A stretch of 37,675 nucleotides of DNA from positions 1-37,675 of the forward strand of contig DATEUE010000213.1 in the NCBI GenBank assembly GCA_035283305.1, written 5' to 3'. The translations under genes and the position numbers were made by a program. This DNA is from Vicinamibacteria bacterium (lineage in GTDB: Bacteria; Acidobacteriota; Vicinamibacteria; Fen-336). The first letter of the stretch is position 1, and the number at the start of each line of letters is the position of its first letter. Shown here in pieces: positions 6,967 through 36,078 of the stretch. The notes under the pieces are model-generated. The model was not told where the DNA came from, did not search any database, and saw only the letters and a program-made list of their open reading frames with translations.

Positions 6967-7059
6967 ATTGCCTCCTTGTCGCGCGAGTGGTGTGAGTGGG
7001 CGGCATTATCCCACCGCCGCCGGGAGCGTCCTTCGTGTTCCAGGGCGGCAGCCGGGAGG

Positions 7060-9279
<2,220 letters not shown>

Positions 9280-9295
9280 GACGCTGGCGGAATCC

Positions 9296-11515
<2,220 letters not shown>

Positions 11516-11531
11516 GGCTTTGCTTCGAAGC

Positions 11532-13748
11532 CTACTCGGTCGCCGCCGTCGCCGGGTACAGCTTGGCGAACTCCGGCTCGCCGCGTAGCAGCGCCAGGTC
11601 GGGATCGCGGCGGGCCCAGTCCGGGTCGCGGAAGCCCGCATCCCAGGACTTCTGGATCGCGGCGAGCGCTTCGAATTTCTTGCCGAGCTGGCAGAACACG
11701 CAGGCCGCGTTGTAGAGCACGATCGCCTCGTTCGGCCGCAGCGCGATGGCGAGGCTCGCCTCGCGCTCGGCGGCGTCCACCATCCCGAGGCTCGCGTAGT
11801 CGCCGGCGAGCAGCGTGCGGGCGCGGGCGTCCTCCGGCACGGTCTTGATATGGGCCTCGAGCGCCTGGATCTCACGCTGGCGCATCTTGTCGAGCGCGTC
11901 CTTCTTGCCGAGCGCGCCGAGCGCGTTCGTCACCGGCACGTAGACGTTGTAGTCCCCGCCGCTCGCCTCGAGCGCGGCGTCGCCGAGGCGCGCCACCTCC
12001 TGGTACTGGCCCGAGGCAAAGAGCGCGCGCAGCAGCAGGTAGTAGGCGCCCTCGGTGTCGGCCTTGCGCTCGATCGCCTGGCGCACGGCGGCCACGGCCT
12101 GCTCGTACTGTCCTTCGGCGTACAGGATCCAGCTCTCGGCCACCAGGACTTCGGGCAGGTCGCGCCGCAGGGCACTCGCCCGCTGCGTGGCCGACACGGC
12201 CCGGCCGATCCAGCCCTGCGCGCGCTCGTAGTGGTAGTGGAGCTCGGCGCACACGTTGGCGATGGCGGCGTGCGCGAGCGCGAACGTGGGGTCGAGCGAG
12301 ACCGCGTTCTCGAACATCTGCAGCGCGAACTCCAGATCCTGGCGCGTGAGCCGGCGCGCGAAGCTCTTGCCGCGCAGGTAGAGATCGTAGGCCTGCAGGC
12401 TCTGCGTCGGCTTGACGGCGAGGGCCTCCTGCTCCTGCGGCGAGAGCTGCACCCGCAGCGCCTCGGCGATCTTGCGCGCGATCTCGTCCTGCACCTCGAA
12501 CACGTCGGCCATCTCGCGGTCGTAGCGCTCGGACCAGAGCGGGAAGTCGGTCTGCGTGTCCACGAGCTGCGCGGTGATCCGGAGCCGCTGCCCCGCCCGG
12601 CGCAGCGTGCCGGTGAGCACGCAGGACGCCTTGAGCTGCTGGCCGATCTGGACGGGCGTGACAGGCTTGTCGCGGTACGCGAGCACCGTCGGGCGCGAGA
12701 AGATCCGAAGGCCCTTGATCTTCGAGAGCTCCGTGATGATGTCCTCGGTCACCCCGTCGCGCAGGTACTCGTCCTCCTTCACCCCGGAGAGGTTCTCGAA
12801 GTAGAGCACCGCGACTGAGCGCTCGGCGGCCTTCTGGGCGCCGCTGCGCGTGTCGGGGGCCTCCGCCGCGCGCCGCCCGCCGGAGTCGGCGTCGCGCTTC
12901 AGGCGCATCAGGTCGGTCTTGAGGTCGGTGGCGGTCTGATAGCGGAGGTTGCGGTCCTTCTCCAGCGCCTTGCCGAGGGCGCGGCTGAGGTCGGCCGGGA
13001 GCGATGGGTTGACCTGCGACAGCGGCAGCGGCTCGCGGTTGAGGATGGCGTCGAAAACGACCGCCGAGGTCTCGCCCTGGAACGGCAGCACTCCGGTCGC
13101 CATCTGGTAGAGCACCGTGCCGAGCGAGAAGAGGTCGGTGCGCGAGTCGGTGAGCTGACCGCGCGCCTGCTCGGGCGACATGTAGGACACCGTTCCCATC
13201 GTGGTGCCCGCGCTCGTCAGCTCGTTGGGCTGAATCGCCGTCGGCGCCTCCGAGTGCTCTCCGCCCGCGGGCCGCGCGCGCTCGATCTTGGCGAGGCCGA
13301 AGTCCAGGATCTTCGCCTGCCCGCGCGGCGTCACGAAGATGTTGGCCGGCTTGAGGTCGCGGTGCACGATCCCCTTCGCGTGCGCCGACTCGAGCGCGTC
13401 CGCGATCTGGATCCCGAGGTCGAGCAGCGTGCCGAGCTCGACCGGCCCCTTGCGGATCCGGTCCGCGAGCGTCTCGCCCTCGAGCAGCTCCATCGCGATG
13501 AAGTGCTGACCCTCGTGCTGGTCGATGGCGTGGACGGTACAGATGCCGGGGTGGTTGAGCTGCGAGGCCGCCTTGGCCTCGCGCTGGAAGCGCTGCAGCG
13601 CGTCCGCGTCCTGCGCCATCTCCAGCGGCAGGAACTTGAGAGCGACGTGCCGCCCGAGCTTGGTGTCCTCGGCCTCGTAGACGACGCCCATCCCGCCGCT
13701 GCCCAGCTTCGACAGGATCCGGTAGTGCGCGACCGACTGGCCGATCAT
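11532..13748 (-). CDS. Ser/Thr protein kinase / TolB_N-like / TPR (array copy 3)
   Basis: 738 aa with the same motif set ([60 protein letters not shown] tail). Its ATG overlaps the copy 4 stop (ATGA at 13745-13748). Confidence 0.9.
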
Positions 13749-15991
13749 CGGTCGTCGCCCTTCGGGAGGGCCGGCCCGCCCTCCATGGCATCGGCCGGGT
13801 AGAGCCGCTCGAACTCGGGGTCGCCGTGCAGGAGCGCCAGGTCGGGATCGCGCCGCGCCCAGCTCGGGTCCTTGGAGCCCGCTTCCCAGGCCTTGCGCAG
13901 CACGCTGAGCGCCTCGGCCTTGCGTTCCAGCTGGCAGAAGACACAGGCAGCGTTGTAGAGCACGGTGGCCTCGTTCGGGCGTAGCGTGATCGAGAGGTTC
14001 GCCTCGCGCACGGCCTCGTCGACGCGGCCCATCGCGGCATAGTCACCGGCCAGCACGCTTCGGGCGCGGGCGTCTTCCGGCACGGTCTTCAGGTGGTTCT
14101 CGAGCGCGAGCACCTCGCGCTGCCGCATGTTCTCGAGAGCGTCCTTCTTGCCGAGCGCTCCGAGCGCGTTGGTGATCGGCACGAAGACGTTGTAGTCCGT
14201 GCCGCTCGCCTCGAGCGCCGCGTCGGCCACCGCCGCCACGTCGTGGTATCGCCCTGCCGCGAAGAGCGCCCTGAGCATCAGGTAGTAGGCGCCTTCGGTG
14301 TCGCGCTTCCGCTCGACCGCCTCCTGCGCCACGTGGGCGGCCTCCTCGTACTGGGCCTGCGTGTACAGGATCCAGGCCTGGGCGATCTTGACCTCGGGCA
14401 GGTGGGGCTGGAGTGCTATCGCCTTGCGCGAGGCGTCGCGCGAGCGGTCGAGCCAGACCTTCTGGCGCTCGTAGTTGTAGTGGTACTGGGCGCACACGTT
14501 CGAGATCGCCGCGTAGGCGAGCGCGAACTCGTGGTCGAGCGAGACCGCGTTCTCGAACATCTGCAGCGCGAACTCGAGGTCCTGGCGGGTGTGGCGCCGC
14601 GCGTAGCTGCGGCCGCGCAGATAGAGATCGTAGGCCTGCAGGTTGGCGGTCGGCTTCGCCGCGATCGCCTCCTGCTCCTGGGGCGAGAGTGTCACGCGCA
14701 GCGCCTCGGCGATCTTGCGGGCGATCTCGTCCTGCACCGCGAACACGTCGGCCATCTCGCGGTCGTAGCGCTCGGACCAGAGCAGCGAGTCCGACGAAGC
14801 GTCCACCAGCTGGGCGGTGATGCGGAGACGGCTGCCCCCGCGACGGATGCTGCCGGCCAGCACGGAAGCGGCCTTCAGCTGCTGGCCGACCTGCGCAGTC
14901 GCCACCGGCTTGTCGCGGAACGGAAGCACCGCCTGGCGCGACAGCACCTTGAGGCCCTTGATCTTGGAGAGCTCCGTGATGATGTCCTCGGTCACTCCGT
15001 CGCGCAGGTACTCGTCCTCTTTCACCCCGGAGAGGTTCTCGAAGTAGAGCACGGCCACCGACCGCTCGGCGGCCTTCTGGGCGCCGCTGCGCGAGTCGGA
15101 AGTCTCGGCCGCGCGCCGGCCGCCGGAGTCGGTGTCGCGCTTCAGGCGCAAGAGGTCGGTCTTCAGCTCCGTGGCCGTCTGGCAGCGCAGGTTGCGGTCC
15201 TTCTCGAGCGCCTTCGACAGGATGCGTCCGAGCTCCGCGGGCAGCGCGGCGTTGAGCTGGCTGATCGGCTGCGGCTCGCGGTTCAGGATCGCCTCGAACA
15301 CGACGGCCGAGGTTTCGCCCTGGAACGGCAGGACACCCGTCGCCATCTGGTACAGCACCGTCCCGAGCGAGAAGAGGTCCGTCCGCGCGTCCGTCAGCTG
15401 CCCGCGCGCCTGCTCCGGCGACATGTACGATACCGTCCCCAAGGTGGTGCCCGCGCTCGTCAGCTCCTGCGGCTGCACGGCCGTCGGGGCCTCGGAGTGC
15501 TCGCTGCCGGCAGGTCGGGCCCGCTCGATCTTCGCAAGGCCGAAGTCCAGGATCTTCGCCTGCGCGCGCGGTGTCACGAAGATGTTGGCGGGCTTCAGGT
15601 CCCGGTGCACGATCCCCTTCGCGTGCGCCGACTCGAGCGCGTCCGCGATCTGGATCCCGAGCTCCAGCAAAGGCGCAAGCTCGATCGCTCCCCGCCGGAT
15701 CCGCTCGGCGAGCGTCTCACCCTCGAGCAGCTCCATCGCGATGAAGTGCTGGCCTTCGTGCTGGTCGATCGCGTGGACCGTGCAGATGCCTGGGTGGTTG
15801 AGCGCCGAGGCCGCACGCGCCTCGCGCTGGAAGCGCTGGAGCGCGTCCGCGTCCTGGGCCATCTCCACGGGCAGGAACTTGAGCGCGACGTGCCGGCCGA
15901 GCTTGGTGTCCTCGGCCTCGTACACCACCCCCATCCCGCCGCTGCCGAGCTTGGCCGTCACCCGGTAGTGCGCGACGGACTCGCCGATCAT
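13745..15991 (-). CDS. Ser/Thr protein kinase / TolB_N-like / TPR (array copy 4)
   Basis: 748 aa with the same architecture. It starts 11 nt downstream of the dehydrogenase stop. Confidence 0.9.
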
Positions 15992-17205: not shown

Positions 17206-17331
17206 CTATCTCTTCGCCGCTTTCCCGAAATGCATGGGAGTTCCGATCAGGTCCTTTTTCTTGGCGATCTTCTTCTTGGCGATCTTCTTCTTGGCGGTCT
17301 TCCTCTTGGCGGTCTTCCTCTTGGCAGCCAT
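17206..17331 (-). CDS. 41-aa lysine-rich micro-protein (candidate substrate peptide or small basic protein)
   Basis: Absent from the track (under 60 aa). ATG at 17329-17331 is preceded by GGAGGAG and a 4-nt spacer. Sequence: MAAKRKTAKRKTAKKKIAKKKIAKKKDLIGTPMHFGKAAKR, with stop TAG at 17206-17208. 34 of 41 codons end in G/C, and 23 of 24 do in the repeat part. In the competing track frame (17141..17536, EEDRQ repeats) only 3 of every 5 repeat codons end in G/C. Confidence 0.65.
   Translation of the reverse strand: MAAKRKTAKRKTAKKKIAKKKIAKKKDLIGTPMHFGKAAKR
17254..17325 (-). repeat. 15-nt tandem coding repeats (pentapeptide AKRKT x2, AKKKI x2, AKKK)
   Basis: The minus strand reads GCCAAGAGGAAGACC GCCAAGAGGAAGACC GCCAAGAAGAAGATC GCCAAGAAGAAGATC GCCAAGAAAAAG. 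The units are contiguous with no spacers. Confidence 0.9.
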
Positions 17332-17335
17332 CAGG

Positions 17336-17342
17336 CTCCTCC
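17336..17342 (-). promoter_or_regulatory. Shine-Dalgarno GGAGGAG for the micro-ORF, 1 nt after the radical SAM stop
   Basis: The minus strand reads TGA A GGAGGAG CCTG ATG. Confidence 0.6.
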
Positions 17343-17343
17343 T

Positions 17344-19485
17344 TCAGTGGCCCGAAACCAGCGGAGTTCGGCGGATCAACACGTCTCCCTGAGGTGCGAT
17401 CGAGAAATGCGACGGGGTCAGCCTGGGTACACGCCCGCGGCAGGCTGAAGGACGCCGGCACGTACCTCCACGCGCGCGAAGCGCGCGAGCCGCCCGCCGG
17501 ATTGGCCTGACAGGATCGCCGGCGGACACGATCCATCCCTCCGAAACCCTCCTCCCGACCGCGCGCACGAGCCGGAAGAGGCGGTCCACCGCCGGCGCCG
17601 GAGGCGAGTAGCCGCCCAGGGGAACCGCCAGCGCGAGGTAGCGGGGCCCGTCGCGAAGGAGCAGGCCGGCGTCCACCAACGGCCCGAGCCGCTGCTCGAT
17701 CTCATCCTGTGACAGCGGCACTTCTGGAACGCGCTCGAGGCAGTCGGCAAGACGGCGAAGGTCACTGGCACGATCACAGGCTTGATAGAGAAGTCGGTCG
17801 ACACCGGCGAGCACCGTGAGGAGCGCGTGTCGCCCGGGTCTCATGTCCCACACCAGGAGGCGCTTTCCGAGATCGACGGAGAAGAGGTCGTGCTGCCCCT
17901 CCCGCTTCTGCCAGGCTCGCAGCTCGTGCTCGAGCGGTGCGACGTATCCTCTCACGTCGCGCCGGTCGCGATAGCGGAAAGTGAAGAAGTGCGCCAGGTT
18001 GGCGAGCGCTTCGTCGGGAAGCGGGTAGACGTATCGGTAAGAGGGTATCGGCCCGACCTGCTCGAAGCCGAGCTGCTCGGCATCGTCGAAGTTCGGACTG
18101 AAGCGGTCGAGCCGGATGATCCCGTAGTCCTCGGGCGCGGGGAGGTGGGCCAGCAACGGAATCAGCCTGGCCATCCGGCGGTACTCCTCCGCCGGCTCTC
18201 CCGGAAACCCCCAGATGAGGTTCCACGAGGGCTCGACGCCCAGCTCCTTGCACCACTTCAGGAGCTGCACGTTCTGCAGCGCGCTCACGCCCTTGCGCAT
18301 CAACCTCAGGATCGGGTCGCTCAGGCTCTCGATGCCGGGCTGGATTCTCCGGATGCGCGCGTCCCGTAGCATCCTCACCTGCTCCTTGCTGAGGTTGGAC
18401 TTGACCTCGTAGTACAAGGAGGGCCCGCGCCGCAGGGCAGCCAGTTCCGGGATGAAGTCCTTGAAATAGCCCATGTCCAGGATGGAGTCGGTCGCTCCCA
18501 TGTTGCAGCCCGGGTGACGCTTGGCGAGATGGTGTAGCTCGTCGAGCGCCCGCCGCGGGGACTTGCTGCGATACGCCATCGTCTCGCCGTTCAGGCCGCA
18601 GAAAGTACAGTGTCTCCGCTCGCCCCACCAGCAGCCCCGCGAGGTCTCGAAGAAGAGGCTCGGCGTCCACTCGTGTGCGAAGCGACTCGCCTCGAACTGC
18701 TCGAAGTAATCGCCGTAGTCGGGGTAGGGCAGCGCGTCGAGGTCCTGCACCATCGGCCCCGGGGCGAAGCGACCGCTCGCGAACTCGGCCTCGATGCCCT
18801 GCCGCGTCCGGACGCCGGCAAGGCCGCAGATCGACTTCCCGTCGAGCAGGCGCCGCGCCAGCTCGGGAAAGACGATGTCGCCTTCTCCAGCCACGACGGC
18901 ATCCACGAACGGGAACTGGCGGACCGTCTCCGCCCCCATCACGCCTTCGCAGTTCGCGCCGCCAAAAACGACCGGGAGCTCGGGAGCGGCCTGCTTGACG
19001 AGCCGCGCCAGTGCCAGCGAAGCCACGTGCTGCTGGAACGTGCTGGTGAAGCCCACGACGCGGGGGCGGGCGCGGAGGATCTCCTCCCGGCACCACTCGA
19101 GGAACCCGTCCACCTGCTCGCGCGCGAGCAGCACACGCCGGATGAGGGCGGGGGATGCCGGCCCTGTCGCGTCGTTGGTGGTCCAGGTCGCGCGCTTCCG
19201 GAGGATCTGATCGACGTACTCCTCGTCGCGGGCCCGGGGTCCAAAGAGCGCGTGCGAGAAGATCCACTCGCCGGCGAGATCCTCGATCGAGGGCCTGCCT
19301 TCGACGGACAGCCAACGGTAGAAGCGCTGCCCCGTGAGCTCCGCGAATCGGATCGAGAAGTAGCGAATCCGCGAGGGTATTCCCTGCGCCTGGAGCGCCG
19401 CCTTGAGCAGGCTCAAGCCGATCGAGGGACAGAATGCGTGGGCGAACGGCATGCACACGAGAAGGACCTCGGCGTCTTTGCTCAA
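17344..19485 (-). CDS. B12-binding-domain radical SAM enzyme, RiPP-maturase-like (resembles TIGR03975-type C-methyltransferases)
   Basis: The N-terminus LLVCMPFAHAFCPSIGLSLLKAAL and the segment VVGFTSTFQQHVASLALARLV..VVFGGANCEG look like a B12-binding domain. The Fe-S motif is ETSRGCWWGERRHCTFCGLNG. A radical SAM core follows (IQPGIESLSD, NLIWGFPGE). The C-terminal helix-rich region looks like a winged-helix/RRE. The TTG start overlaps the kinase stop (TTGA). Family assignment is from memory, not a search. Confidence 0.8.
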   Translation of the reverse strand: MSKDAEVLLVCMPFAHAFCPSIGLSLLKAALQAQGIPSRIRYFSIRFAELTGQRFYRWLSVEGRPSIEDLAGEWIFSHALFGPRARDEEYVDQILRKRATWTTNDATGPASPALIRRVLLAREQVDGFLEWCREEILRARPRVVGFTSTFQQHVASLALARLVKQAAPELPVVFGGANCEGVMGAETVRQFPFVDAVVAGEGDIVFPELARRLLDGKSICGLAGVRTRQGIEAEFASGRFAPGPMVQDLDALPYPDYGDYFEQFEASRFAHEWTPSLFFETSRGCWWGERRHCTFCGLNGETMAYRSKSPRRALDELHHLAKRHPGCNMGATDSILDMGYFKDFIPELAALRRGPSLYYEVKSNLSKEQVRMLRDARIRRIQPGIESLSDPILRLMRKGVSALQNVQLLKWCKELGVEPSWNLIWGFPGEPAEEYRRMARLIPLLAHLPAPEDYGIIRLDRFSPNFDDAEQLGFEQVGPIPSYRYVYPLPDEALANLAHFFTFRYRDRRDVRGYVAPLEHELRAWQKREGQHDLFSVDLGKRLLVWDMRPGRHALLTVLAGVDRLLYQACDRASDLRRLADCLERVPEVPLSQDEIEQRLGPLVDAGLLLRDGPRYLALAVPLGGYSPPAPAVDRLFRLVRAVGRRVSEGWIVSAGDPVRPIRRAARALRARGGTCRRPSACRGRVPRLTPSHFSIAPQGDVLIRRTPLVSGH

Positions 19486-22400
19486 GACGCGCCGCCCGCC
19501 TTCGCCGGACGGCTCCGTAGCAGCGCCCTGGCCTTGCGCGCCACCTGCCCGAAGCCCCGGGCCTGCGCGTCCTGCTCGAGGGCGACGAGCTCCGCTTCCG
19601 AGGCGCCACCGCCCGATGCCAGCTCGACCTCACAGCGGGCGAGCCGGAGCTCGAGCTGCAGGCCGAGCAGGCGAAGCCTGACCGCTTCCGCAAGCGCGGC
19701 TGCGATCCTGCGACGGGCCTCTTCGGACCGTCCGGTCCCGGCCTGGACGCGTGCCAGGTCCGCGGTCACCGCGAGCCGAACCTGCGGGCTCTGGCTTCGC
19801 ACGACGAGGACTGCCGACCGCTCGGCCGGCTGGAGCGCATCGCCTGGTTGATTGCAGGCCAGAAGGGCCCGGGCGTGGGCCGCCTGGGCGGAGGCCTCCC
19901 AGTCCTCCGCCTTCTGGGCGGCGAAGACCCGCGCCGCCGACCGCAAGCGCGGCTCCGCGGCTTGCGGTCGGCCTTCCTCGATCGATAGTCGGGCGAGTGC
20001 CACCTGGCTCTTCGCGACGGCGAACGCCGCTCGCAGCTCCGTCCGGATCGTCAGTGCCGCCTCGTGGCCTTCCCTGGACGCGGCGTGGTCGCCCTTGGCC
20101 TTGAGCAGCTCGGCGAGGTTGAAGAGAGTGTCCGCCACGGAGTCACGCGTGCCCCGCTCCTGCAGGGTGGGCAGGATCTCCCGGTAGCGCGCTTCGGCCG
20201 CCGGGAGGTCCCCTTCTTCGTGCGAGATCCTGGCGAGCCGCATCAGCGCCAGGGCCGCCTCGGTCCTGTCGCCGATGTCGCGAGCGAGGAAGAGCGCCTG
20301 CTCGGCCGCGGTCTTCGCGCCGGTAAGATCGCCCAGGTCGTCCAGCAGTCCGGCGATGTCCTCGAGAGCGATGGCGCGTCCGGGCCGGTCGCCCAGCTCG
20401 CGGTTGATGGCGTGGCCGTCCTCCATGCTGCCCCGTGCGCCGCCCAGGTCGCCCTGCTCCCAGAGAACGAGGCCGATGTTGTGGAGCGAGGCTGCGACAC
20501 CGGAGCGATACCCGATCTGTCGCCGGACCCGCAGGCACTCCTCCCAGGTCGTCCTCGCCGTCTCGAGGTCGCCGTGATACCAGGAGAGGCTGCCGATGAT
20601 GTTCAGTGCCCCGGCCAGTCCTCCCCGGTCACCCGCCTCGGCGAAGATCTGCCGCGCTGCCTCGCCCGCCACTGCGGCCTTCGGCGGCTCCCCCAACCGG
20701 TCGAGGGCGTACGCCTCGCGCAGCCGGGCCCGGGCGACCAGGAGCCGCGCGCCCTGGGCGACTCCCTTGGCCACGGCGCGGCTGGCAGCCGCCTGTTGCA
20801 GCCTGAAGTCTCCGAGAGACTGGGCCACCGCGGCTTCGGTCAGGTCGATGCGCGGATCCTCGGGCGCGGGAGGCGGGAGGCGGCGCAGCTTCGCCAGCGT
20901 GGCCAGCGCGTCCTGTGCCTTGCCTCCAGTGCTCTGCGCTGCCGCGAGCCGAAGGCCGTACTCCACGTTGTCGGGGAAGAATGTGAGGAGCGCACCGTAG
21001 ATCTCGATCGCCTTGTCCCACTCGCCAGCGGTCTCGCGGTAGCGCCCTTCGACGGACAGGCGTTGCTCGCGGGAAAGACGGTCCGACAGGTCGAACGCCT
21101 TGCGGGCCTCCGCTCTGGCGTTGGCGTCGTACCCGAGCGTGGCCCAGGCGTCGGCGAGCCCGAAGTGGGCCATCGGGGACCGGGGATCGGCGGCTGTGGC
21201 CTTCTCCAGGAGGTCGCGGGCGGCCAGGGCATCGAAGACCCGCAGCGCCACTACGTTCGAGGGCGTGCCGTCGAGCCCACCGACCTCGGTGGCGGGTGGC
21301 GGATCCACGCCCAGCGATTGCCGCAGCCGAGCGCCCGTCCGCATCAGCAGATCGACGAGCCCGCCTTCGGTGCCGCTCTCCGCGAGCGCGGCCAGCGTCT
21401 CGCCGGTAGCCACGTCCTGCAGCCGCAGGTCGAGGCGGATCTGATCGCCGGGCAAGGCCACGTACGAGCCGAGCAGCACCATGGTCGTTCCGAGGTTCCG
21501 GCCGACCTTGGCGAGCGTGTCCGGGGCCAGGCTCTCCGCGTCCGAAAGCGACAGCTCCAGCTTCATGCGGCCGACATTCTCGCCGGGGATCGTGCGCAGT
21601 CGGCCGCCCGCGGCCAGCTCGGTGGTCAGCATCTCGGCGAACGCGCTGGAGAGCCAGGCCGCGTCGCTCCGGCCTGTGAGGTTCTTGAATCCGAGCACGG
21701 CCACGGACGGGCGCGCCTTCGTGACCTGGGCCGCTGCGGTGGGCGTGGGGCCGGCGTCCGTCCGCGAAAGACGCGGGATCACGGCGCGCGCAAGGCCCAG
21801 CGCGCCGGCCAGCGCCACCAGCGAGGCCATCACGAGTCTCCGCGAGGGTCGCCAGCGAGGGGGACTGCTCGAGGCGGCCGCCTGGCGCGGAGCCGCGGAG
21901 ATCTCGTCGAGGTGCTCCAGCACGCCGGCCAGGTCGCGAGCCAGGTCGCGGGTCGAGGCGTAGCGGCCGGCAGGATCCTTGGCGAGGCACCGCTCGACGA
22001 TCCACCGGAGTGGCGGGGGAACGGCCGGATTGAGCTGCGCGATCGGCTCCGGCTCGTCCTCGATGATCGCGGCCAGCGTCTGGGCGGACGAGGCACGTCG
22101 AAAGGCAGGCCGCCCGGTCGCCATCTCGTACAGGATCGACCCGCACGAGAACTGGTCCGAGCGGAAGTCGATCCGCTCGCCCCTGGCCTGCTCGGGGGAC
22201 ATGTAGCCGACGGTGCCCAGGATGCGGCCCGGCTCGGTCCCGGGAGGACCGCCGGATGCCGTGCGGCCATCGTCGGCCAGCGGCGTCAGCTTGGCGAGGC
22301 CGAAGTCGAGGAGCTTCACGCGTCCGTCCGGGGTGATCATGATGTTCTCGGGCTTCAGGTCGCGGTGGACGATGCCCTCGGCGTGGGCCTGGGCCAGCCC

Positions 22401-22778
22401 GTCCGCTGCCTGTGCGGCGAGCTGCAGCGAGCGGCGCGTGAGCAGCGGCCCGCTCAGCAGGATCTCGCGCAGGGTGCGTCCCTCGATCAGCTCCATTGCG
22501 ATGTAGCGGGTGTCCGCCACCGCCCCGATCTCGTGAACGGTGACGATGTTGGGATGATTGAGCGCCGAGGCGGAGCGCGCCTCCTGTTCGAAGCGGGCCA
22601 CCCGTTCGGGGTCCGAGGAGGCCGATCCGGTGAGGACCTTGATGGCGACGAGGCGTCCGAGCGTGTGGTCGCGCGCGCGGTAGACGACCCCCATGCCGCC
22701 TTGACCGAGTCGGTCGAGTATCTCGTAGTGCCCGAAGCGTCTTAGCCGGACCAAGTCGACAGCCGTTGGCTGACTCAT
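19482..22778 (-). CDS. membrane-anchored Ser/Thr protein kinase with TolB_N-like module and long TPR region
   Basis: Kinase motifs: GQGGMGVVY, VAIKVL, HRDLKPENI, DFGLAK, GYMSPEQ. One TM helix (LVMASLVALAGALGLARAVI). Then SVAVLGFKNLTGRSDAAW... and about 600 aa of TPR-type repeats. I prefer ATG 22776-22778 (MSQPTAVDLV...) over the TTG at 22805 used by the track. Confidence 0.9.
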   Translation of the reverse strand: MSQPTAVDLVRLRRFGHYEILDRLGQGGMGVVYRARDHTLGRLVAIKVLTGSASSDPERVARFEQEARSASALNHPNIVTVHEIGAVADTRYIAMELIEGRTLREILLSGPLLTRRSLQLAAQAADGLAQAHAEGIVHRDLKPENIMITPDGRVKLLDFGLAKLTPLADDGRTASGGPPGTEPGRILGTVGYMSPEQARGERIDFRSDQFSCGSILYEMATGRPAFRRASSAQTLAAIIEDEPEPIAQLNPAVPPPLRWIVERCLAKDPAGRYASTRDLARDLAGVLEHLDEISAAPRQAAASSSPPRWRPSRRLVMASLVALAGALGLARAVIPRLSRTDAGPTPTAAAQVTKARPSVAVLGFKNLTGRSDAAWLSSAFAEMLTTELAAGGRLRTIPGENVGRMKLELSLSDAESLAPDTLAKVGRNLGTTMVLLGSYVALPGDQIRLDLRLQDVATGETLAALAESGTEGGLVDLLMRTGARLRQSLGVDPPPATEVGGLDGTPSNVVALRVFDALAARDLLEKATAADPRSPMAHFGLADAWATLGYDANARAEARKAFDLSDRLSREQRLSVEGRYRETAGEWDKAIEIYGALLTFFPDNVEYGLRLAAAQSTGGKAQDALATLAKLRRLPPPAPEDPRIDLTEAAVAQSLGDFRLQQAAASRAVAKGVAQGARLLVARARLREAYALDRLGEPPKAAVAGEAARQIFAEAGDRGGLAGALNIIGSLSWYHGDLETARTTWEECLRVRRQIGYRSGVAASLHNIGLVLWEQGDLGGARGSMEDGHAINRELGDRPGRAIALEDIAGLLDDLGDLTGAKTAAEQALFLARDIGDRTEAALALMRLARISHEEGDLPAAEARYREILPTLQERGTRDSVADTLFNLAELLKAKGDHAASREGHEAALTIRTELRAAFAVAKSQVALARLSIEEGRPQAAEPRLRSAARVFAAQKAEDWEASAQAAHARALLACNQPGDALQPAERSAVLVVRSQSPQVRLAVTADLARVQAGTGRSEEARRRIAAALAEAVRLRLLGLQLELRLARCEVELASGGGASEAELVALEQDAQARGFGQVARKARALLRSRPAKAGGAS

Positions 22779-22915
22779 GGATCCCGTTTCGTCACACGAC
22801 GACAACGCCGCAGGCGACAGTCTACTCCCCTGTCCGTCTCGCGGAGCCAGGGACTTTGCGCGCGCACGTGCGTCCTCGCGCGGCCGGCTTGTGGGCCCTC
22901 CCCCGCCCTGCTAAC

Positions 22916-27749: not shown

Positions 27750-29294
27750 TCAGCGCGCGGCCGAGTCGAGCAGCTCGACGCCGTAGGCGTGATGCAGCCG
27801 CTCGCCAGCGGCCTCGGCCTCCGCCGCGTCGATCACGATGCGGCTGGCGGCCTGCCCCGAGACGAGCTCGATCACGTGGAAGCCGGAGCTCGCCGAGCCG
27901 AAGGCCTCGCGCAGCGCCGCGAGGTTCGGCACCGGGCGGCCGTTCACGCGCTCGACGATCTGGTCGCGCAGCTCCTGGTAGCCGAGGTTCGCGGCGTCGG
28001 GTAGCACGCTCGACAGCAGCACGATACGTCGCGATTCGTCCCCGACCTCGTCGTCGGCGCGGTCGATCGCGACCAGCAACCGCGGCGGCGCGCGGCGCGT
28101 CCAGTCGCCCCAGGAGGCGAGGTACGGGCGGGTCAGCTCCTGGAACACGAGGCCGCCCTTGACGACGTAGTCGGGCCCGCGCCCGTAGACATAGGGCGGC
28201 ACGCGATCCTGCTCCGGTCGCATCGCACGAAGCGAAAGCTGCAGGTCGAGACGCTGGCCGTCGCGCAGGATCCGGACCGGCATCGTGTCGCCGGGCCGCC
28301 TGCCGTCGGTGAACAGCAGCGCGAAGAGCATGCGCCCATAAAGAGGATGCTCGTAGTAGCCCGTGGGGTCGAGCCTCGCGCCCCCGAGCTCCAGCACCAC
28401 GTCCCCCGGCTTCAGCACGGAGCCCGCGCTGCCGTGCGGCAGCACGCGCGTCAGCCGGATCCCGGTCTCGCCGGGCTGGAGGCCGAGCGACTCGCGCAGC
28501 GCCGGGTTGGTGAGGTCCTGCCACGCGAGACCCGCGCGCGCGAAGCTGCGCCAGTCGCTCTGGGCGGCGCCGGCGAGGAACTGAGCCAGCACCGGAGCCG
28601 CAACGGCCGCGTACGTGTCGCCGGCGCGGCCCGTCACGAGCCCGGCCACGCGGCCGTTCACGACCACGACCTCGGACTCGCCGAGGCCCTCGGCGCTCGA
28701 CGCCACGTCGATCGTCAGCAGGCTGGTCTGCGACAGACCGTGCCGCCCCGAGCGCACCTGGCGCAGCGTCCCGGGGTAGGCGTCGAGCAGGCCCGTGCGC
28801 TGCCAGCGCAGCACCTGTACCGCGCCCTCGCCCCAGGCGCGCGGCTCGAGCGCGAGCGGTGAGAGGCCCTCCCAGAAGGCGGGGTCGTCGACGGCCACGA
28901 GCGCGAGCGGGCCCTCGTGGTCCACGAGCTCCACGCGCGCCACCGTGCGCGCGTCGCCCCCGAGCTTCTGCGCCTCGACCAGCAGCGGGTTGCCGAAGGC
29001 GGTCGACGCGACCAGGATCCGCCTTCCCGGGACGACGAGGCCGGTGACCGTCCGCGTCCAGGGCGGCTGCTTCTCCCAGGGCGCGCGCCAGTTCCAGTCC
29101 TGGCCGGTGACGCGCACGCTCACGACGCCGGCGCGCAGCGTGCCGTTCGCGGGGACGGCTTCGCCGACGACCGCAGCCGGAGCGGGGGGCGGCGGCGCTA
29201 TGGCGGCGGACGGCTGCGGCCGCGCCGAGGCGCAGGCCACCGCGAGCAGGGCGAGCAGGACGGGGCTACGGCCGGCGGTCGTGCGGGATCGCAT
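27750..29294 (-). CDS. Deg/HtrA-like protein with PDZ-like region but no catalytic triad (pseudo-protease), possible lipoprotein
   Basis: It is collinear with the adjacent protease, but His is replaced (ILVASTAFGNP vs ILTNGHVIADA), Asp is replaced (HEGPLALVAV vs HDCDLAVLRV) and Ser is replaced (AEGLGESEVVVVNGRVAGL vs NPGNSGGPVVQDGRVVGV). Signal peptide with Cys: LLALLAVACAS. Confidence 0.75.
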   Translation of the reverse strand: MRSRTTAGRSPVLLALLAVACASARPQPSAAIAPPPPAPAAVVGEAVPANGTLRAGVVSVRVTGQDWNWRAPWEKQPPWTRTVTGLVVPGRRILVASTAFGNPLLVEAQKLGGDARTVARVELVDHEGPLALVAVDDPAFWEGLSPLALEPRAWGEGAVQVLRWQRTGLLDAYPGTLRQVRSGRHGLSQTSLLTIDVASSAEGLGESEVVVVNGRVAGLVTGRAGDTYAAVAAPVLAQFLAGAAQSDWRSFARAGLAWQDLTNPALRESLGLQPGETGIRLTRVLPHGSAGSVLKPGDVVLELGGARLDPTGYYEHPLYGRMLFALLFTDGRRPGDTMPVRILRDGQRLDLQLSLRAMRPEQDRVPPYVYGRGPDYVVKGGLVFQELTRPYLASWGDWTRRAPPRLLVAIDRADDEVGDESRRIVLLSSVLPDAANLGYQELRDQIVERVNGRPVPNLAALREAFGSASSGFHVIELVSGQAASRIVIDAAEAEAAGERLHHAYGVELLDSAAR

Positions 29295-30768
29295 ACTGCC
29301 TCAGGATCTGCGTGTGGGCGGCGTCGGCCTTCGCGCGATCGAGCGCTTCGATGCCTCCGTCGCCTTCGAAGTCGATCGTGTGGAAGCGGACGGTGTTCGC
29401 GGCGAAGGCCTGCGAGACGTCCTCGAGCGAACGGATCTCGCGACCGTTGATGCGCTCGACGCCCACTGGCAGCGTGAGCGCCATCTGCGAGTTGACCGCG
29501 TGCCGCAGCAGCCGGGTCAGCACCACCACCTCGCGATCGGCCGCTTCGGGCTTCTCGGCCTCGCGGAACAGCTGGTGCCAGACGAGGTCGCGGTTGGCGG
29601 TCTGCGGCCAACCGCGCCCGAGCGTCTTCAAGAGCGCCACCTCGAGCCGCATGAAGACGAGGCCGGCGTACACCACATAGTCGGGCGCTACGGCGTAGCG
29701 GTTCCGGTTGCGATCGTAGCGCGCGATGCGGCGCGCGGGCGCCTCGAGCGCGAGCTCCCGGCCGTCGCGCCAGACGCTGAAGCGCGTCGCCTGCCCCACC
29801 TGCAGCATGTCGATCGCGTGCTCGAAGGTCACGCGCGCGTCGCCCACGCGGATCGTTCCGTCGTCGGCGATCGCGTGGCCCTGCGCCTTTAGCAGCACGT
29901 CGCCCGCGCGCACGACGCCGTCAGCCGTCCCGCCGGGCGCCACGCGGTCGACCACCACCCCCGAGCGCCCCAAAGGCAGGCGGCGCTCGCGCCTGTAGGC
30001 CGGTGACAGCAGCGGCGCCGTTTGCAGTCCCGAATCCGGGAAGCCGTCGTAGCGACCGTCCTCCAGGTTGGCGAGGAAGTGGCGCACGATCGGGACCGGG
30101 ATGAAGAAGCCCATGTTGTCGGCGCCCGGGAAGCCCTGGAACGCGACGCCGACGACGCGGCCGTCCTGCACCACCGGCCCGCCGCTGTTGCCCGGGTTGA
30201 TCGCGGCGTCCGTCTGGACCACGAGGTGCGCGTCCGCGCCGCTGTGCACGTAGCCGCGCGACTCGATGCGCGAGACGATGCCGGCGGTGGACGAGACGTC
30301 CTGCCCGCCGAGCGGGAAGCCGTACGTGTTGACGCGCGTCCCGGCGCGAGGCAGCGTGCCGAGCCGCAGCGGGCGCAGACCGCGACCGAAGGCCGGATCG
30401 GCGACGCGCAGCACCGCGAGGTCGCAGTCGTGGCCGGCAGCCTCGATGGTGGCGACGTAAGGGTTCGCCTGGTCGGGTCGCCGCACGAGGATCTGGCGAG
30501 CGTCTGCGATCACGTGGCCGTTCGTCAGGATGCGACCGCCCTCGATGAGAAAGCCGCTGCCGGAAGCGCCGCTCACCGGCTCCTGGCGCCACGGCTGCGC
30601 CCAGTCGAAGGGCGAGCGGAACACCTGCACGTGCACGACCGAGGCGGCGACCCCGTTGCCGGTGGCCGGCACCTGCGCGGCGGTCTGCCGTGCGTCCGGT
30701 GTCGTGTTCTGCGCGGCCGCGATGGCCGCGGCCGCAACGAGCGCGGCGGCGAGGGCGACGCTTTTCAT
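29266..30768 (-). CDS. S1C (Deg/HtrA-type) serine protease with PDZ-like C-terminal region
   Basis: Signal peptide MKSVALAAALVAAAAIAAA. Triad contexts TNGHV, DLAVLRV and GNSGGPV are all present. The ATG overlaps the hemY stop (ATGA). Confidence 0.85.
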   Translation of the reverse strand: MKSVALAAALVAAAAIAAAQNTTPDARQTAAQVPATGNGVAASVVHVQVFRSPFDWAQPWRQEPVSGASGSGFLIEGGRILTNGHVIADARQILVRRPDQANPYVATIEAAGHDCDLAVLRVADPAFGRGLRPLRLGTLPRAGTRVNTYGFPLGGQDVSSTAGIVSRIESRGYVHSGADAHLVVQTDAAINPGNSGGPVVQDGRVVGVAFQGFPGADNMGFFIPVPIVRHFLANLEDGRYDGFPDSGLQTAPLLSPAYRRERRLPLGRSGVVVDRVAPGGTADGVVRAGDVLLKAQGHAIADDGTIRVGDARVTFEHAIDMLQVGQATRFSVWRDGRELALEAPARRIARYDRNRNRYAVAPDYVVYAGLVFMRLEVALLKTLGRGWPQTANRDLVWHQLFREAEKPEAADREVVVLTRLLRHAVNSQMALTLPVGVERINGREIRSLEDVSQAFAANTVRFHTIDFEGDGGIEALDRAKADAAHTQILRQYAIPHDRRP

Positions 30769-33499: not shown

Positions 33500-33705
33500 A
33501 CTGCGCTCGTAACGTCAGGGTGCCTCCCGTTTCGGGAGGGTAAAAGGGAAGCAGGTCGAAAACCTGCGCGGTCCCGCCACTGTAGCCGGCGAGCCCGCTT
33601 CCATAGGCGCCTGTAGGGCGCCGCCACTCGGTGACCTCGCAAGAGGAGGCCGGGGAAGGTCGGGAGCGAGGTGACGACCCGGGAGCCAGGAAACCTGCCC
33701 TGACC
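33500..33705 (+). promoter_or_regulatory. cobalamin (B12) riboswitch
   Basis: GGGUGCC..., the conserved core UAAAAGGGAAGCAGGUCGAAAACCUGCGCGGUCCCGCCACUGUA, then GCCACUCGG...GGGGAAGGUCGG, and the B12 box GAGCCAGGAAACCUGCC (33685-33699). It lies upstream of a TonB-dependent receptor / BtuF-like operon. Boundaries are approximate. Confidence 0.85.
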
Positions 33706-33837
33706 GACGTGAAAGACGTACTAGAGGCTTCTCGCGTGAGGGAGCACCTGGACCGGCGGCCTGAAACAGGCCACCTCCCAACAGACGGCTCGCCGCGAAT
33801 CGTCCACCGTGAGGCTCGAGGGCCTTCGGCGGACAGG

Positions 33838-33855: not shown

Positions 33856-36078
33856 ATGCGCACCGTGCTTCGTCTCTTCTTTTGTCTCTGCGGCTCGTGG
33901 GCGGCGGTCGCGGCCGCCGAGCCAATGGCCCTCTCGGGGTCGCTCGTGGGTGTCGTGCGCACGAGCGACGGCCTGCCGCTGCCTGGCGTGGCCGTCGTCA
34001 TCGACGGGCCGTCGAGCGAGCGTCGCGTGACGACGGGCCCCGACGGCTCGTATCGAGCGGCGGCGCTCGCGCAAGGCGCCTACACGCTTCGCGTCGACGC
34101 ACCCGGGCTCGCGCTGCGCGAGGCGGCTTTCGCATCGGTCGGGGCCGCGGAAACGCGGCAGGACCTCGTGCTGTCGCCCGCGCCGGTCGCGGAGCGCGTC
34201 GTGGTGAGCGCCACGCGCCGCGAGGCCACGCTGTCGACGCTCGGCACGAGCGCGGACGTGCTCGAGCGCGAGGCGATCGACGAGCGTGCGGCAGCGTCGC
34301 TTTTGCCGCTGCTGCAGGGTGTGCCGGGCGTCGCGACCGCCCGCAGCGGCCAGACGGGCCAGCAGGGCTCCGCGTTCATCCGCGGCGGCGAGTCGCGCTA
34401 CGCGCGGGTGATGGTCGACGGCGTGCCGGTGAACCAGCCGGGCGGCGCCTACGACTTCGGCACGGCGCTGCCCTTCGAGCTCGAGCGGGTCGAGATCGTG
34501 CGCGGCGCCGCCAGCAGCCTCTACGGGACCGACGCGCTCGCCGGTGTCGTGAGCCTCACGACCCGCCGCGCGCGCGCCGGCGCGAGCCCGTCATTGCGCG
34601 CCGAGGGCGAGGGCGGCTCCTTCGACTGGCAGCGCTTCCTGGGCGCGACCTCGGGGGCGAGCGGAGCCTTCGACTGGAACGCCGGTGCGCAGCGCCTCAC
34701 CACGGACAACGAGGCGCCGAACAGCGCGTTCGAGCAGACCGCGGCGGCGCTCTCCGCGGGGCTCAAGCTCGACGAGCGCACGCGGGCCCGCGCCGTCGTG
34801 CGCTTCGACGGCAGTACCGTCGGGACGCCGGGGCCGACCGCCTTCGGCCCGCCCGATCAGGACGCGTCCTTCGAGCGCGAGGACCTCGTGCTCTCGGCCA
34901 CGCTGCGCCGCGACCACGCCCGCTTCTCGCAGCAGGCGAGCGTCGGCTACTCGCGCACCGACCAGCTCTCGCTCGACCCCGCCGACTCCGGGTGCTACGT
35001 GCCCGAGTGGCAGGACCAGCTGGGCAGCTTCCCGATGTGCGACTTCCCGAACCCGGCCGGATTCCGGAACCAGACGGATCGGCTCGCCGTCGGGTACCAG
35101 GCGGACGTGTCCGTCGGGACGCGGCACATGCTGACCGCCGGGACGGAGCTCGAGCACGAGACGGGCGCGCTCGGCGACCGATCGGAAGACCTGCTGCGGC
35201 CGGAGCGCACGAGCTTCGGGGCGTACCTGCAGGACCGCGTGCTGCTGGGCGCGCGCGCGTACCTGACGCTCGGCGCCCGCGTCGAAGACAACGGCAGCTA
35301 CGGCACGCACGTCGTCCCCCGCATAGCGCTCGCCTTGCGCCTGCGCGAGGGCGAGGACGCGACGACGCTGCGGACGAGCGCCGGCATGGGGATCAAGGAG
35401 CCGAGCTTCTTCGAGTCGTACGGGGAGTCGTTCTTCGCGAAGGGCAACCCCGAGCTCGACCCCGAGCGCAGCACCACCTTCGACGTGGGTGTCGAGCAGC
35501 GGCTCTTCGCGAGCCGGCTGCGCGCCTCGCTCACGTACTTCCACCACGACTACCAGGACCAGATCGCCTACAGCGTCGTCGACTTCACGAGCTTCGAGGG
35601 CACCTACGTGAACCTCGCCCACACCCGGGCGCAGGGGCTCGAGTTGGCGCTCGAGGCGCGGCCCGTGCCCGAGCTCGCGCTCTGCGGCCAGTACACGTTC
35701 CTCGACGGCGAGATCCTCGAGAGCCCGAGCGACTTCGATCCCGTCTACGCGGTCGGGCAGCCGCTGCTGCGCCGGCCGAGGCACCAGGGCTCGCTCGGCG
35801 CCCTGCTGTCGTTCCCGCGCTGGAGTGCCGGGGTCACGCTGGCGCTCGTCGGTGAGCGGGCGGACAGCGATTTCGTGGGTCTCGGCCTCGCGACCAACCC
35901 CGGATACGCGCGGCTCGAGGCCCGCCTGCGCTTCCTGCTGGCGGGACCGCTCGAGGCGTACCTGGTCGGCGACAACCTGCTGAACGCGGAATACCAGGAA
36001 GCGCTCGGCTATCCCGCGCTCGGCCGCGCCGTGCGCGGCGGCCTGCGGCTGCGCCTGGGCGGCGGCGGGCGCCCGTGA
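33856..36078 (+). CDS. TonB-dependent outer-membrane receptor with N-terminal carboxypeptidase-regulatory-like domain (probable corrinoid receptor)
   Basis: Signal peptide MRTVLRLFFCLCGSWAAVAAA. CarbopepD_reg-like segment (GVVRTSDGLPLPGVAVVIDG...GSYRAAALAQGAYTLRV). Plug motifs (VVVSATRRE, AFIRGGESRYARVMVDGVPVN, VEIVRGAASSLYGTDALAGVV). A long beta-barrel follows. The 75-codon upstream extension in the track lies over the riboswitch. Confidence 0.85.
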   Translation: MRTVLRLFFCLCGSWAAVAAAEPMALSGSLVGVVRTSDGLPLPGVAVVIDGPSSERRVTTGPDGSYRAAALAQGAYTLRVDAPGLALREAAFASVGAAETRQDLVLSPAPVAERVVVSATRREATLSTLGTSADVLEREAIDERAAASLLPLLQGVPGVATARSGQTGQQGSAFIRGGESRYARVMVDGVPVNQPGGAYDFGTALPFELERVEIVRGAASSLYGTDALAGVVSLTTRRARAGASPSLRAEGEGGSFDWQRFLGATSGASGAFDWNAGAQRLTTDNEAPNSAFEQTAAALSAGLKLDERTRARAVVRFDGSTVGTPGPTAFGPPDQDASFEREDLVLSATLRRDHARFSQQASVGYSRTDQLSLDPADSGCYVPEWQDQLGSFPMCDFPNPAGFRNQTDRLAVGYQADVSVGTRHMLTAGTELEHETGALGDRSEDLLRPERTSFGAYLQDRVLLGARAYLTLGARVEDNGSYGTHVVPRIALALRLREGEDATTLRTSAGMGIKEPSFFESYGESFFAKGNPELDPERSTTFDVGVEQRLFASRLRASLTYFHHDYQDQIAYSVVDFTSFEGTYVNLAHTRAQGLELALEARPVPELALCGQYTFLDGEILESPSDFDPVYAVGQPLLRRPRHQGSLGALLSFPRWSAGVTLALVGERADSDFVGLGLATNPGYARLEARLRFLLAGPLEAYLVGDNLLNAEYQEALGYPALGRAVRGGLRLRLGGGGRP

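Follow-up and report, generated by a model that had tools for sequence, protein, structure and literature searches.

A kinase-linked radical SAM enzyme of Acidobacteriota with a leader-like tail and a candidate polybasic peptide substrate

The 37,675-nucleotide (nt) contig DATEUE010000213.1 from a soil Vicinamibacteria bacterium (hereafter the window, meaning that whole stretch) encodes on its minus strand, on which all features of the module discussed here are read, a Hanks-type Ser/Thr kinase, a radical S-adenosylmethionine (SAM) enzyme that depends on cobalamin and is 713 amino acids (aa) long and a Lys-rich micro-ORF (short open reading frame). The reading that we favor, with a probability of roughly 55%, is that the peptide represents a new precursor class for a known family of enzymes maturing peptides that are made on the ribosome and modified after translation (RiPPs), with the leader supplied in cis by the tail of the enzyme. 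Comparison of related loci shows that the kinase, the enzyme of family TIGR03975 and the coupled polybasic peptide form a conserved module and not a chance arrangement, and profile comparison shows homology between the motif at the C-terminus of the enzyme and the leader motif that separate precursors in sister systems carry at their N-terminus. The enzyme family itself is already known; judging from sequence and structural models, the precursor class and the enzyme-borne leader are apparently new.

Membership of the enzyme in TIGR03975, named “RiPP maturation radical SAM C-methyltransferase” by NCBI and corresponding to the PoyB/PoyC family, is unambiguous at the sequence level and agrees with what the first-pass annotation of the window had proposed: the score is 650.1 bits against a cut-off of 281.85, and aa 7-621 cover the profile in full (1-606/606). 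A better fit to a B12 radical SAM family outside RiPP biosynthesis, which would have spoken against that proposal, was not seen, as HpnJ, HpnR and BchE reach 64, 46 and 43 bits, and hopanoid, bacteriochlorophyll and other B12 radical SAM models range from 20 to 81 bits, far below their cut-offs. The B12-binding-like domain suspected at the N-terminus is recovered by Pfam above its cut-off, as is a Radical_SAM domain at aa 281-442. The annotation had also singled out the iron-sulfur motif as unusual in its spacing. The Cx7Cx2C motif is indeed present, with C285, C293 and C296 invariant among 26 homologues, but since Cx7Cx2C in place of Cx3Cx2C is a reported hallmark of PoyC (PMC11285071), it is a family trait and no anomaly. 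The AlphaFold2 (AF2) model of the whole enzyme, with a mean predicted local distance difference test score (pLDDT) of 84.5, has the predicted fold of a class-B radical SAM enzyme, like those of solved cobalamin radical SAM enzymes, its best Foldseek matches being TsrM, TokK, OxsB, MgmA and CysS (E = 1e-13 to 1e-10). Homologues number roughly 8,000. The nearest relatives in the databases share 55-88% identity with the enzyme and belong for the most part to metagenome-assembled genomes (MAGs) of Vicinamibacteria and other Acidobacteriota; they too carry about 90 residues past the end of the TIGR03975 profile.

Three parts follow beyond aa 621: a short subdomain of helix and hairpin (aa 630-653), a linker rich in Arg and little conserved, which varies among homologues in both length and sequence, and a terminal motif with the consensus RLTxSQFSxxxxG(D/E)VLIR, conserved in 27 sequences. 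This leader-like motif, on which the earlier annotation was silent, is the most unusual feature of the module. In more distant TIGR03975 enzymes, which have no such tail, a small ORF directly 3' of the enzyme gene bears the same motif at its N-terminus, as in the precursors of Lysinibacillus (loci L075/L078 of our survey, MTEKKQIMLTPDVFKVNNDGEVIINN...GVVISISVSV) and Paenibacillus (L052, MAQEKKQLTLSPEAFTVNSQGEVIISD...VKVSVSVSI). ORFs of leader type also occur in three copies in a Herpetosiphonaceae MAG (L022) and once each in L018, L037 and L088. By their sequences these are typical leader-plus-core precursors with Val/Ile-rich cores, and the three that were looked up (L075, L052 and L018) are annotated merely as hypothetical proteins. 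The Lysinibacillus and Paenibacillus systems are present in cultured bacteria.

One-way hidden Markov model (HMM) matches between tails and leaders are individually marginal (E 0.3-5) and persuasive only as rank enrichment, and the two sets were therefore compared profile to profile. Using hhalign, we obtained a probability of 94.6% (P = 7.2e-8) over 24 columns in register. In reciprocal HMM searches, each set tops the other's non-self matches among more than 23,000 six-frame ORFs, and a tblastn search with the 713-aa query extended the alignment of its tail into the Paenibacillus precursor ORF. The survey also contains intermediate states. In L088, a closely related enzyme without the tail motif is accompanied by a separate leader-type precursor, and in L021 (5995-8151) and L034 (5989-8085) the enzyme ends in the motif followed by about 25 residues (e.g., LSPGHFFFDKGELVIDLAPLEMIDINSVTLQLFQMSAGHA), such that it appears, by sequence, to be fused to a whole precursor. 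Minus-strand leader-motif matches upstream of Blastocatellia enzymes were rejected as reverse-frame readings of the 3' end of the kinase gene. The leader HMM also matches a strand pair inside the enzyme itself, DLFSVDxGxxLLVWDLRP (aa 531-550, ~17836-17895, minus strand), which suggests that the hairpin of leader or tail may imitate this strand pair or associate with it.

The structural models suggest where the tail could bind. The earlier suggestion of a winged helix in the C-terminal segment agrees with both the predicted fold and the Foldseek neighbors. In the AF2 prediction, DSSP assigns strands at 534-538, 542-547 and 556-560 and helices at 561-569, 576-582 and 593-605, the same strand-helix order that RiPP recognition elements (RREs) need (PMC12710340), as far as a prediction goes. 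The top Foldseek matches of the modeled fragment aa 525-713 are winged-helix domains only, with probabilities of ~0.99 and weak E-values of 0.03-0.4; no RRE chain is among the top 50, and a PDB sequence search with the profile of the C-terminal domain gave nothing relevant. The models thus support aa 534-618 as a candidate winged-helix, RRE-like peptide-binding domain. The tail motif is modeled with a pLDDT of ~89 in the full enzyme, despite the low-confidence linker before it, and of 87-95 in the aa 525-713 fragment that is devoid of the catalytic core. Its predicted docking partner therefore lies within the C-terminal domain, and we infer from the models that the tail hairpin docks on the winged-helix domain.

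The micro-ORF downstream of the enzyme gene was found as first described, with 1 nt after the enzyme stop, a GGAGGAG sequence, a 4-nt spacer (cctg) and an ATG at 17331 opening 41 codons; the reading of the kinase stop and enzyme start as overlapping in a TTGA at 19482-19485 likewise agrees with the ORFs and the junction. At 37% Lys in a window of ~70% G+C, the micro-ORF is conspicuous, and it closes with a short C-terminal segment, DLIGTPMHFGKAAKR. NCBIfam and Pfam scans of this ORF, of eight other such peptides and of the enzyme tail returned nothing, or compositional matches only, in keeping with the view of the first-pass annotation that the peptide is unlike known precursor classes. The comparison with other genomes draws on a survey of 160 related loci from genomes and metagenomes, with two more from exact protein look-ups. 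Locus L083 (metagenome contig Ga0214473_10022116) is 99.5-99.7% identical to the window in nucleotides and belongs to the same population; the sole indel in the 4-kb enzyme block is the in-frame loss of one 15-nt unit of the micro-ORF. L083 is also divergent over ~40 nt directly past the micro-ORF stop. Compared with L001, whose enzyme is 88% identical, the last 15 codons differ by four synonymous and three replacement changes. In L002, the enzyme is 67% identical and the flanking genes are wholly different, and there is again a kinase gene (1110 aa) overlapping the enzyme start and a 24-aa ORF, MPAKKKTGGGKKKGRQPGKKKKTK, that begins 17 nt past the enzyme stop.

Across the survey, 26 distinct Lys-rich ORFs of 24-64 aa and 33-55% Lys lie directly after enzyme genes, with starts at -70 to +39 nt relative to the enzyme stop. 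All 26 are preceded by a Shine-Dalgarno-like site and begin with ATG, bar one GTG (GVG-type). Within the first 82 loci and the window, stretches with at least 8 Lys in 20 aa are found after the enzyme gene, and elsewhere in just two weak cases. One could suppose that the micro-ORF is no gene at all, but a tandem repeat in purine-rich DNA that is open by chance, given that it does hold a 15-nt tandem repeat, that sequence of such low complexity is beyond assessment by homology searches, and that most of the Lys-rich ORFs are missing from the protein collection. We give this idea hardly any credence: start codons and Shine-Dalgarno sites accompany every distinct ORF, Lys-rich coding is retained in genomes of 62-72% G+C, the repeat polymorphism keeps the frame, and the non-repetitive C-terminal ends are conserved. 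With its frame kept across the polymorphism, synonymous changes near the C-terminus and recurring ends, the micro-ORF looks, from sequence, like a true gene.

A quick neighbor-joining tree of 119 enzyme cores places the enzymes of all Lys-rich loci within one Acidobacteriota clade, in which the module is spread over Vicinamibacteria, Thermoanaerobaculia, Holophagales and Terriglobia. The co-occurrence of enzyme orthologues with a kinase and a Lys-rich micro-ORF, which the first-pass annotation had named as a check, is seen in contigs with otherwise different neighbors. Just two loci in the clade have no Lys-rich ORF, namely L093, truncated by the end of its contig, and L094. The latter (7047-8428) has instead an acidic 47-aa ORF, MDNTTKIAVAKEDVDVNDFIVEDAVVMEELPSFPLALMQGPEVPYPE, followed by a gene that is SagB-like by eye, and may represent a swap of precursor type. 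In L001 (3434-5578), the enzyme gene is called as two pieces of 81 and 596 aa, probably through a frameshift or an assembly error.

Taking these observations together, we propose that the enzyme has taken over the recognition (leader) element from its substrate and that the tail hairpin would fill the leader-binding site of the winged-helix domain in cis. If the leader is on the enzyme, the co-translated Lys-rich peptide, made directly after it, would therefore be a leaderless substrate. By analogy with PoyC, the enzyme would probably methylate an unactivated carbon of this peptide, with methylcobalamin as the methyl donor. The C-terminal ends of the peptides fall into the families (T/A/V)GCI(G/F/Y)P, GD(I/V)F(G/S/P), GPVK(A/S)F, xIxxGxx and DVGVI and that of the window itself, and most peptides have just one Ile or Val, placed 3-8 residues before the C-terminus (for example GCIFPG, GDVFG, GPVKAF and DLIGTPMHFG). 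Residues of this type are what PoyC methylates, and this one would be the likely target. Methylation would yield a polycationic peptide whose C-terminal end is more hydrophobic. Conserved protease or exporter genes do not accompany the module in the compared loci; the Lys-rich part may therefore be retained, and the mature peptide may work within the cell or at its membrane.

Several observations weigh against this proposal. Its main weakness is that the peptides of L002, L084 and L092 have neither Ile nor Val and that several peptides end in Lys runs. Seven Lys-rich loci (L012, L044, L089-L091, L095 and L098) have no tail motif, and neither, probably, does L103, in which the reading frame of the enzyme may continue into that of the peptide; the tail motif is therefore not obligatory for this peptide type, and the two are linked but separable. 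Kinases also adjoin Blastocatellia-type enzymes that have no Lys-rich ORF or visible precursor. The docking of the tail in cis is read from AlphaFold confidence, and the RRE assignment comes with no PDB sequence match and with Foldseek E-values of only 0.03-0.4. The tail could, moreover, be autoinhibitory instead of activating, a pseudo-leader whose effect could be relieved by the kinase. A further difficulty is the recognition of a polybasic peptide by an enzyme whose own linker is basic; electrostatic recognition by an acidic enzyme was considered and rejected, the net charge of the core having a median of 0 in Lys-rich loci and -13 elsewhere. Finally, translation and modification of the peptide are both predictions from sequence.

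These weaknesses lend some weight to a different role for the peptide, namely that it is not the substrate but an accessory polycation (one that binds nucleic acid, polyphosphate or the membrane, for instance, or that partners the enzyme), the true substrate being another protein, from a near or distant gene, possibly the kinase. Peptides that have no hydrophobic C-terminal segment or no Ile/Val would fit such a role, as would the Blastocatellia-type relatives, which keep the kinase and have no peptide, and the composition resembles that of histone-H1-like tails, to which the NCBIfam matches are weak and compositional (E = 0.03). We nevertheless consider this unlikely, if worth keeping in view, because the peptide gene always lies directly after the enzyme gene and has its own ribosome-binding site, the recurring ends GCI[FYG]P, GD[IV]F and GPVK[AS]F hold the beta-branched residue that a PoyC-type substrate should have, and the kinases, in which both the leader and the tail motif were looked for, contain neither.

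The third component of the module, the kinase, was initially taken for a membrane protein, and one strongly hydrophobic 19-aa segment fits a single membrane span. It is built from a kinase domain, this predicted span, an LpoB/CsgG-like stretch and a long TPR region; its ORF may alternatively be counted from the first in-frame TTG at 22805 (19482-22805, 1107 aa). Orthologues over the C-terminal part occur in L083, L001, L002 and L080, always with a 4-nt overlap with the enzyme gene (read as GTGA in L002 and inferred in L083, L001 and L080). For adjacency, 22 of the 28 Lys-rich loci could be read on both flanks, and in 20 of these a gene for a Ser/Thr kinase is no more than 1.7 kb away. Kinase genes occur at 0.30 per kb near the enzyme gene and at 0.027 per kb further off in the same loci, a difference of about 11-fold. 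The kinase may lie upstream, with an overlap of 4, 10 or 13 nt between the two genes, or follow the enzyme gene, either ~260-290 nt downstream on the same strand or ~120-140 nt downstream in convergent orientation. The arrangement differs by sub-clade, and the non-catalytic part may be TPR, a PD40 beta-propeller or absent. In L004 (35-6124, Thermoanaerobaculia), two enzyme-peptide-kinase units follow one another, the first peptide (MAPKKTAQQTGTKAKATGKRTTKKKPYDGVIIPGKAGNRE) having a lower share of Lys and a higher share of Thr.

Ser/Thr kinases abound in the genomes of Acidobacteriota, and the adjacency might be ascribed to chance or to inheritance. Five kinase genes do lie on one strand of the window, and the orthologous kinase is confined to the window and its closest relatives (L083, L001, L002 and L080). 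Given the enrichment described above, and the fact that the adjacency lasts though neighbors, gene order, orientation and kinase type change, this explanation seems to us very improbable; the persistence of the pairing through rearrangement, kinase replacement and the duplication in L004 argues for a functional link between kinase and enzyme.

What that link might be is a separate question. The kinase could be a maturation enzyme that phosphorylates Ser/Thr of the peptide, in the style of class III/IV lanthipeptide synthetases or as a lasting modification. The very strong adjacency would suit this, Thr is frequent within the basic repeats (KRKT, KKKT, TKKK), and the kinase domain gives sub-threshold matches to LanL and LanKC. 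These matches, however, are confined to the kinase domain and far below the cut-offs (LanL NF038150, 94 bits against 650; LanKC NF038151, 66 against 575; and, in the same way, the TOMM kinase/cyclase fusion TIGR03903, 144 against 705.75), and no lyase or cyclase domain is present. The peptides of four of the 26 distinct ORFs (L009, L012, L097 and L104) have no Ser or Thr at all, and the kinases are receptor-like, with interchangeable non-catalytic parts and varying position. A catalytic role of the lanthipeptide kind, which the first-pass annotation had brought up, is therefore unsupported, and we think it quite unlikely.

Further evidence comes from the Blastocatellia/Pyrinomonadaceae-type loci L011, L015, L020, L028 and L105, where a kinase of ~900 aa is followed by an enzyme that ends at aa 621; a precursor was sought for these five kinase-linked enzymes and none was found. 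In L028 and L105, a gene for an extracytoplasmic function (ECF) sigma factor adjoins the kinase, which suggests a regulatory pairing. Genes for LodA/LodB-like oxidases lie nearby in three of the five loci. From the peptides free of Ser/Thr, the low LanL, LanKC and TOMM scores and the sigma-factor loci, we take the most likely role of the kinase to be regulatory, with a signal coupled through it to the enzyme or peptide, and not one in maturation. A more specific and decidedly speculative version would be a signal-gated intracellular switch, in which the kinase phosphorylates Thr/Ser of the tail (RLTxSQF) or the peptide and thereby toggles docking and activity. The methylated peptide would then be an internal effector and no exported antibiotic, binding membrane, nucleoid or ribosome as an anchor with a polybasic part and a hydrophobic end.

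The features of the module are collected in Table 1. Elsewhere, the window encodes cytochrome c maturation proteins, a dehydrogenase, DegP-like proteases, fatty-acid enzymes and similar proteins. Immediately downstream of the module, with a 2-hydroxyacid dehydrogenase gene in between, lie four tandem paralogous Ser/Thr kinase genes (7060-15991, minus strand; 738-748 aa, kinase and TPR) whose products have no hydrophobic segment; two of these paralogues are found at the same place in L001. A cobalamin riboswitch (RF00174, 95.9 bits; 33501-33716, plus strand) precedes a TonB-dependent receptor gene (33856-36078, plus strand), probably a B12 uptake system; the B12-dependent enzyme is encoded 11 kb away on this contig. 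Two adjacent paralogous genes for PDZ_3 proteins (27750-30768, minus strand), the second with an added trypsin-like (DegP/HtrA-type) protease domain, are not conserved with the module. The scan for operon signals turned up a single weak terminator-like site, which is at the level of chance, and nothing resembling a promoter, and the Rfam scan over the module range gave no RNA element.

Table 1. Features of the kinase-enzyme-peptide module, in positions of the window
Feature	Position	Strand	Basis or remark
Hanks-type Ser/Thr kinase gene, 1098 aa	19482..22778	-	from ATG at 22778
Protein kinase catalytic domain	21954..22727	-	PF00069, aa 27-284, 160 bits, E = 9.8e-47, profile 1-254/263
Predicted single transmembrane segment VMASLVALAGALGLARAVI, aa 316-334	21777..21833	-	Kyte-Doolittle mean 2.05, 19 aa
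TPR / MalT-like repeats, putative sensor or interaction part	19674..21224	-	Pfam TPR_12, TPR_MalT, TPR_10, TPR_19
TTGA, kinase TGA stop overlapping enzyme TTG start	19482..19485	-	
Cobalamin-dependent radical SAM enzyme, 713 aa, TIGR03975	17344..19485	-	stop codon 17346-17344
B12-binding domain, aa 134-209	18859..19086	-	PF02310, 35.9 bits against a cut-off of 32.1
Cx7Cx2C iron-sulfur motif SRGCWWGERRHCTFCGLNG, C285/C293/C296	18598..18633	-	
Predicted three-strand, three-helix and wing domain, aa 534-618	17632..17886	-	DSSP on AF2 models
Arg-rich linker, aa 656-687	17425..17520	-	pLDDT 42-59, low predicted order
Leader-like motif RLTPSHFSIAPQGDVLIRR, aa 688-706	17368..17424	-	predicted beta-hairpin, predicted to dock in cis
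Shine-Dalgarno sequence GGAGGAG	17336..17342	-	1 nt past enzyme stop
41-codon polybasic micro-ORF, candidate substrate	17206..17331	-	encodes MAAKRKTAKRKTAKKKIAKKKIAKKKDLIGTPMHFGKAAKR
15-nt (5-codon) tandem repeat, 4.8 copies, AK(K/R)K(T/I) units	17254..17325	-	Tandem Repeats Finder (TRF)

Radical SAM enzymes of this family are known mainly from polytheonamide-type proteusins. If our proposal is true, it adds polylysine peptides with a very short core to TIGR03975 as a new class of precursor, and the kinase link across a whole phylum suggests that peptide C-methylation can be wired to signaling, for which we found no description for radical SAM RiPP enzymes in the searched papers and family libraries. 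Nor did we find in the literature, where our coverage of subscription journals was sparse, a description of Lys-rich precursors, of kinase-linked TIGR03975 enzymes or of a natural enzyme-borne leader. Neither NCBIfam and Pfam nor the searched literature contain polybasic peptides as a precursor class, the leader motif borne by the enzyme, the sister leader-type precursors or the phylum-wide kinase partnership.

Among known systems, the proteusin C-methyltransferases of the PoyB/PoyC type are the closest in enzyme, sharing the full-length family match, the N-terminal cobalamin domain and the Cx7Cx2C motif (PMC11285071), and by analogy the same chemistry would be expected of the window enzyme, the methylation of unactivated carbons in Val/Ile-type residues of a ribosomal peptide. 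However, the precursors there are NHLP/Nif11-type proteins of ~100 aa, compared to polybasic peptides of 24-64 aa here; the adjacent ORF gives no match to NHLP/Nif11-type precursors, and none of the annotated window genes is precursor-like, although small ORFs were not exhaustively scanned. The window enzyme further adds the subdomain at aa 622-655, the basic linker and the leader-like C-terminal motif, and in place of a conserved epimerase, dehydratase, protease or exporter the conserved partner of the module is a Ser/Thr kinase. The sister TIGR03975 systems (L075/L078, L052, L022, L018 and L088) have in common with it the family, the extension at aa 622-655, a small ORF after the enzyme and the motif L(S/T)PxxFxVxxxGxVxI. 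They differ in that this motif is at the N-terminus of the peptide, whereas it is at the C-terminus of the enzyme in the clade of the window, and in having Val/Ile/Ser-rich cores (VVISISVSV, VKVSVSVSI) instead of a polybasic peptide, with no adjacent kinase.

Kinase domains of the Hanks type in or next to RiPP loci are also a feature of LanKC, LanL and the TOMM kinase/cyclase (TIGR03903), but the kinase of the window is a separate membrane protein with TPR, and has no lyase, cyclase or adenylate-cyclase-like domain. The clavusporin-type system, a DUF5825 protein and a B12 radical SAM enzyme in an actinomycete operon (PMC10849626), is set apart, going by its outline description, by the DUF5825 partner, for which there is no counterpart among the annotated genes here. 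The layout of the window enzyme is also that of laboratory designs. LynD-F, MicD-F and a lantibiotic synthetase engineered with a fused leader, in which a flexible linker tethers the leader to the enzyme, act constitutively on substrates that have no leader (PMC9052802), and the window enzyme has the same order of enzyme, disordered linker and leader motif. Those are cyclodehydratases and lanthionine synthetases made in the laboratory, some with the leader at the N-terminus, whereas the enzyme described here is a radical SAM protein and, if our reading is true, would be a natural example of what chemists have engineered, with the leader fused to the enzyme and the substrate freed of it.

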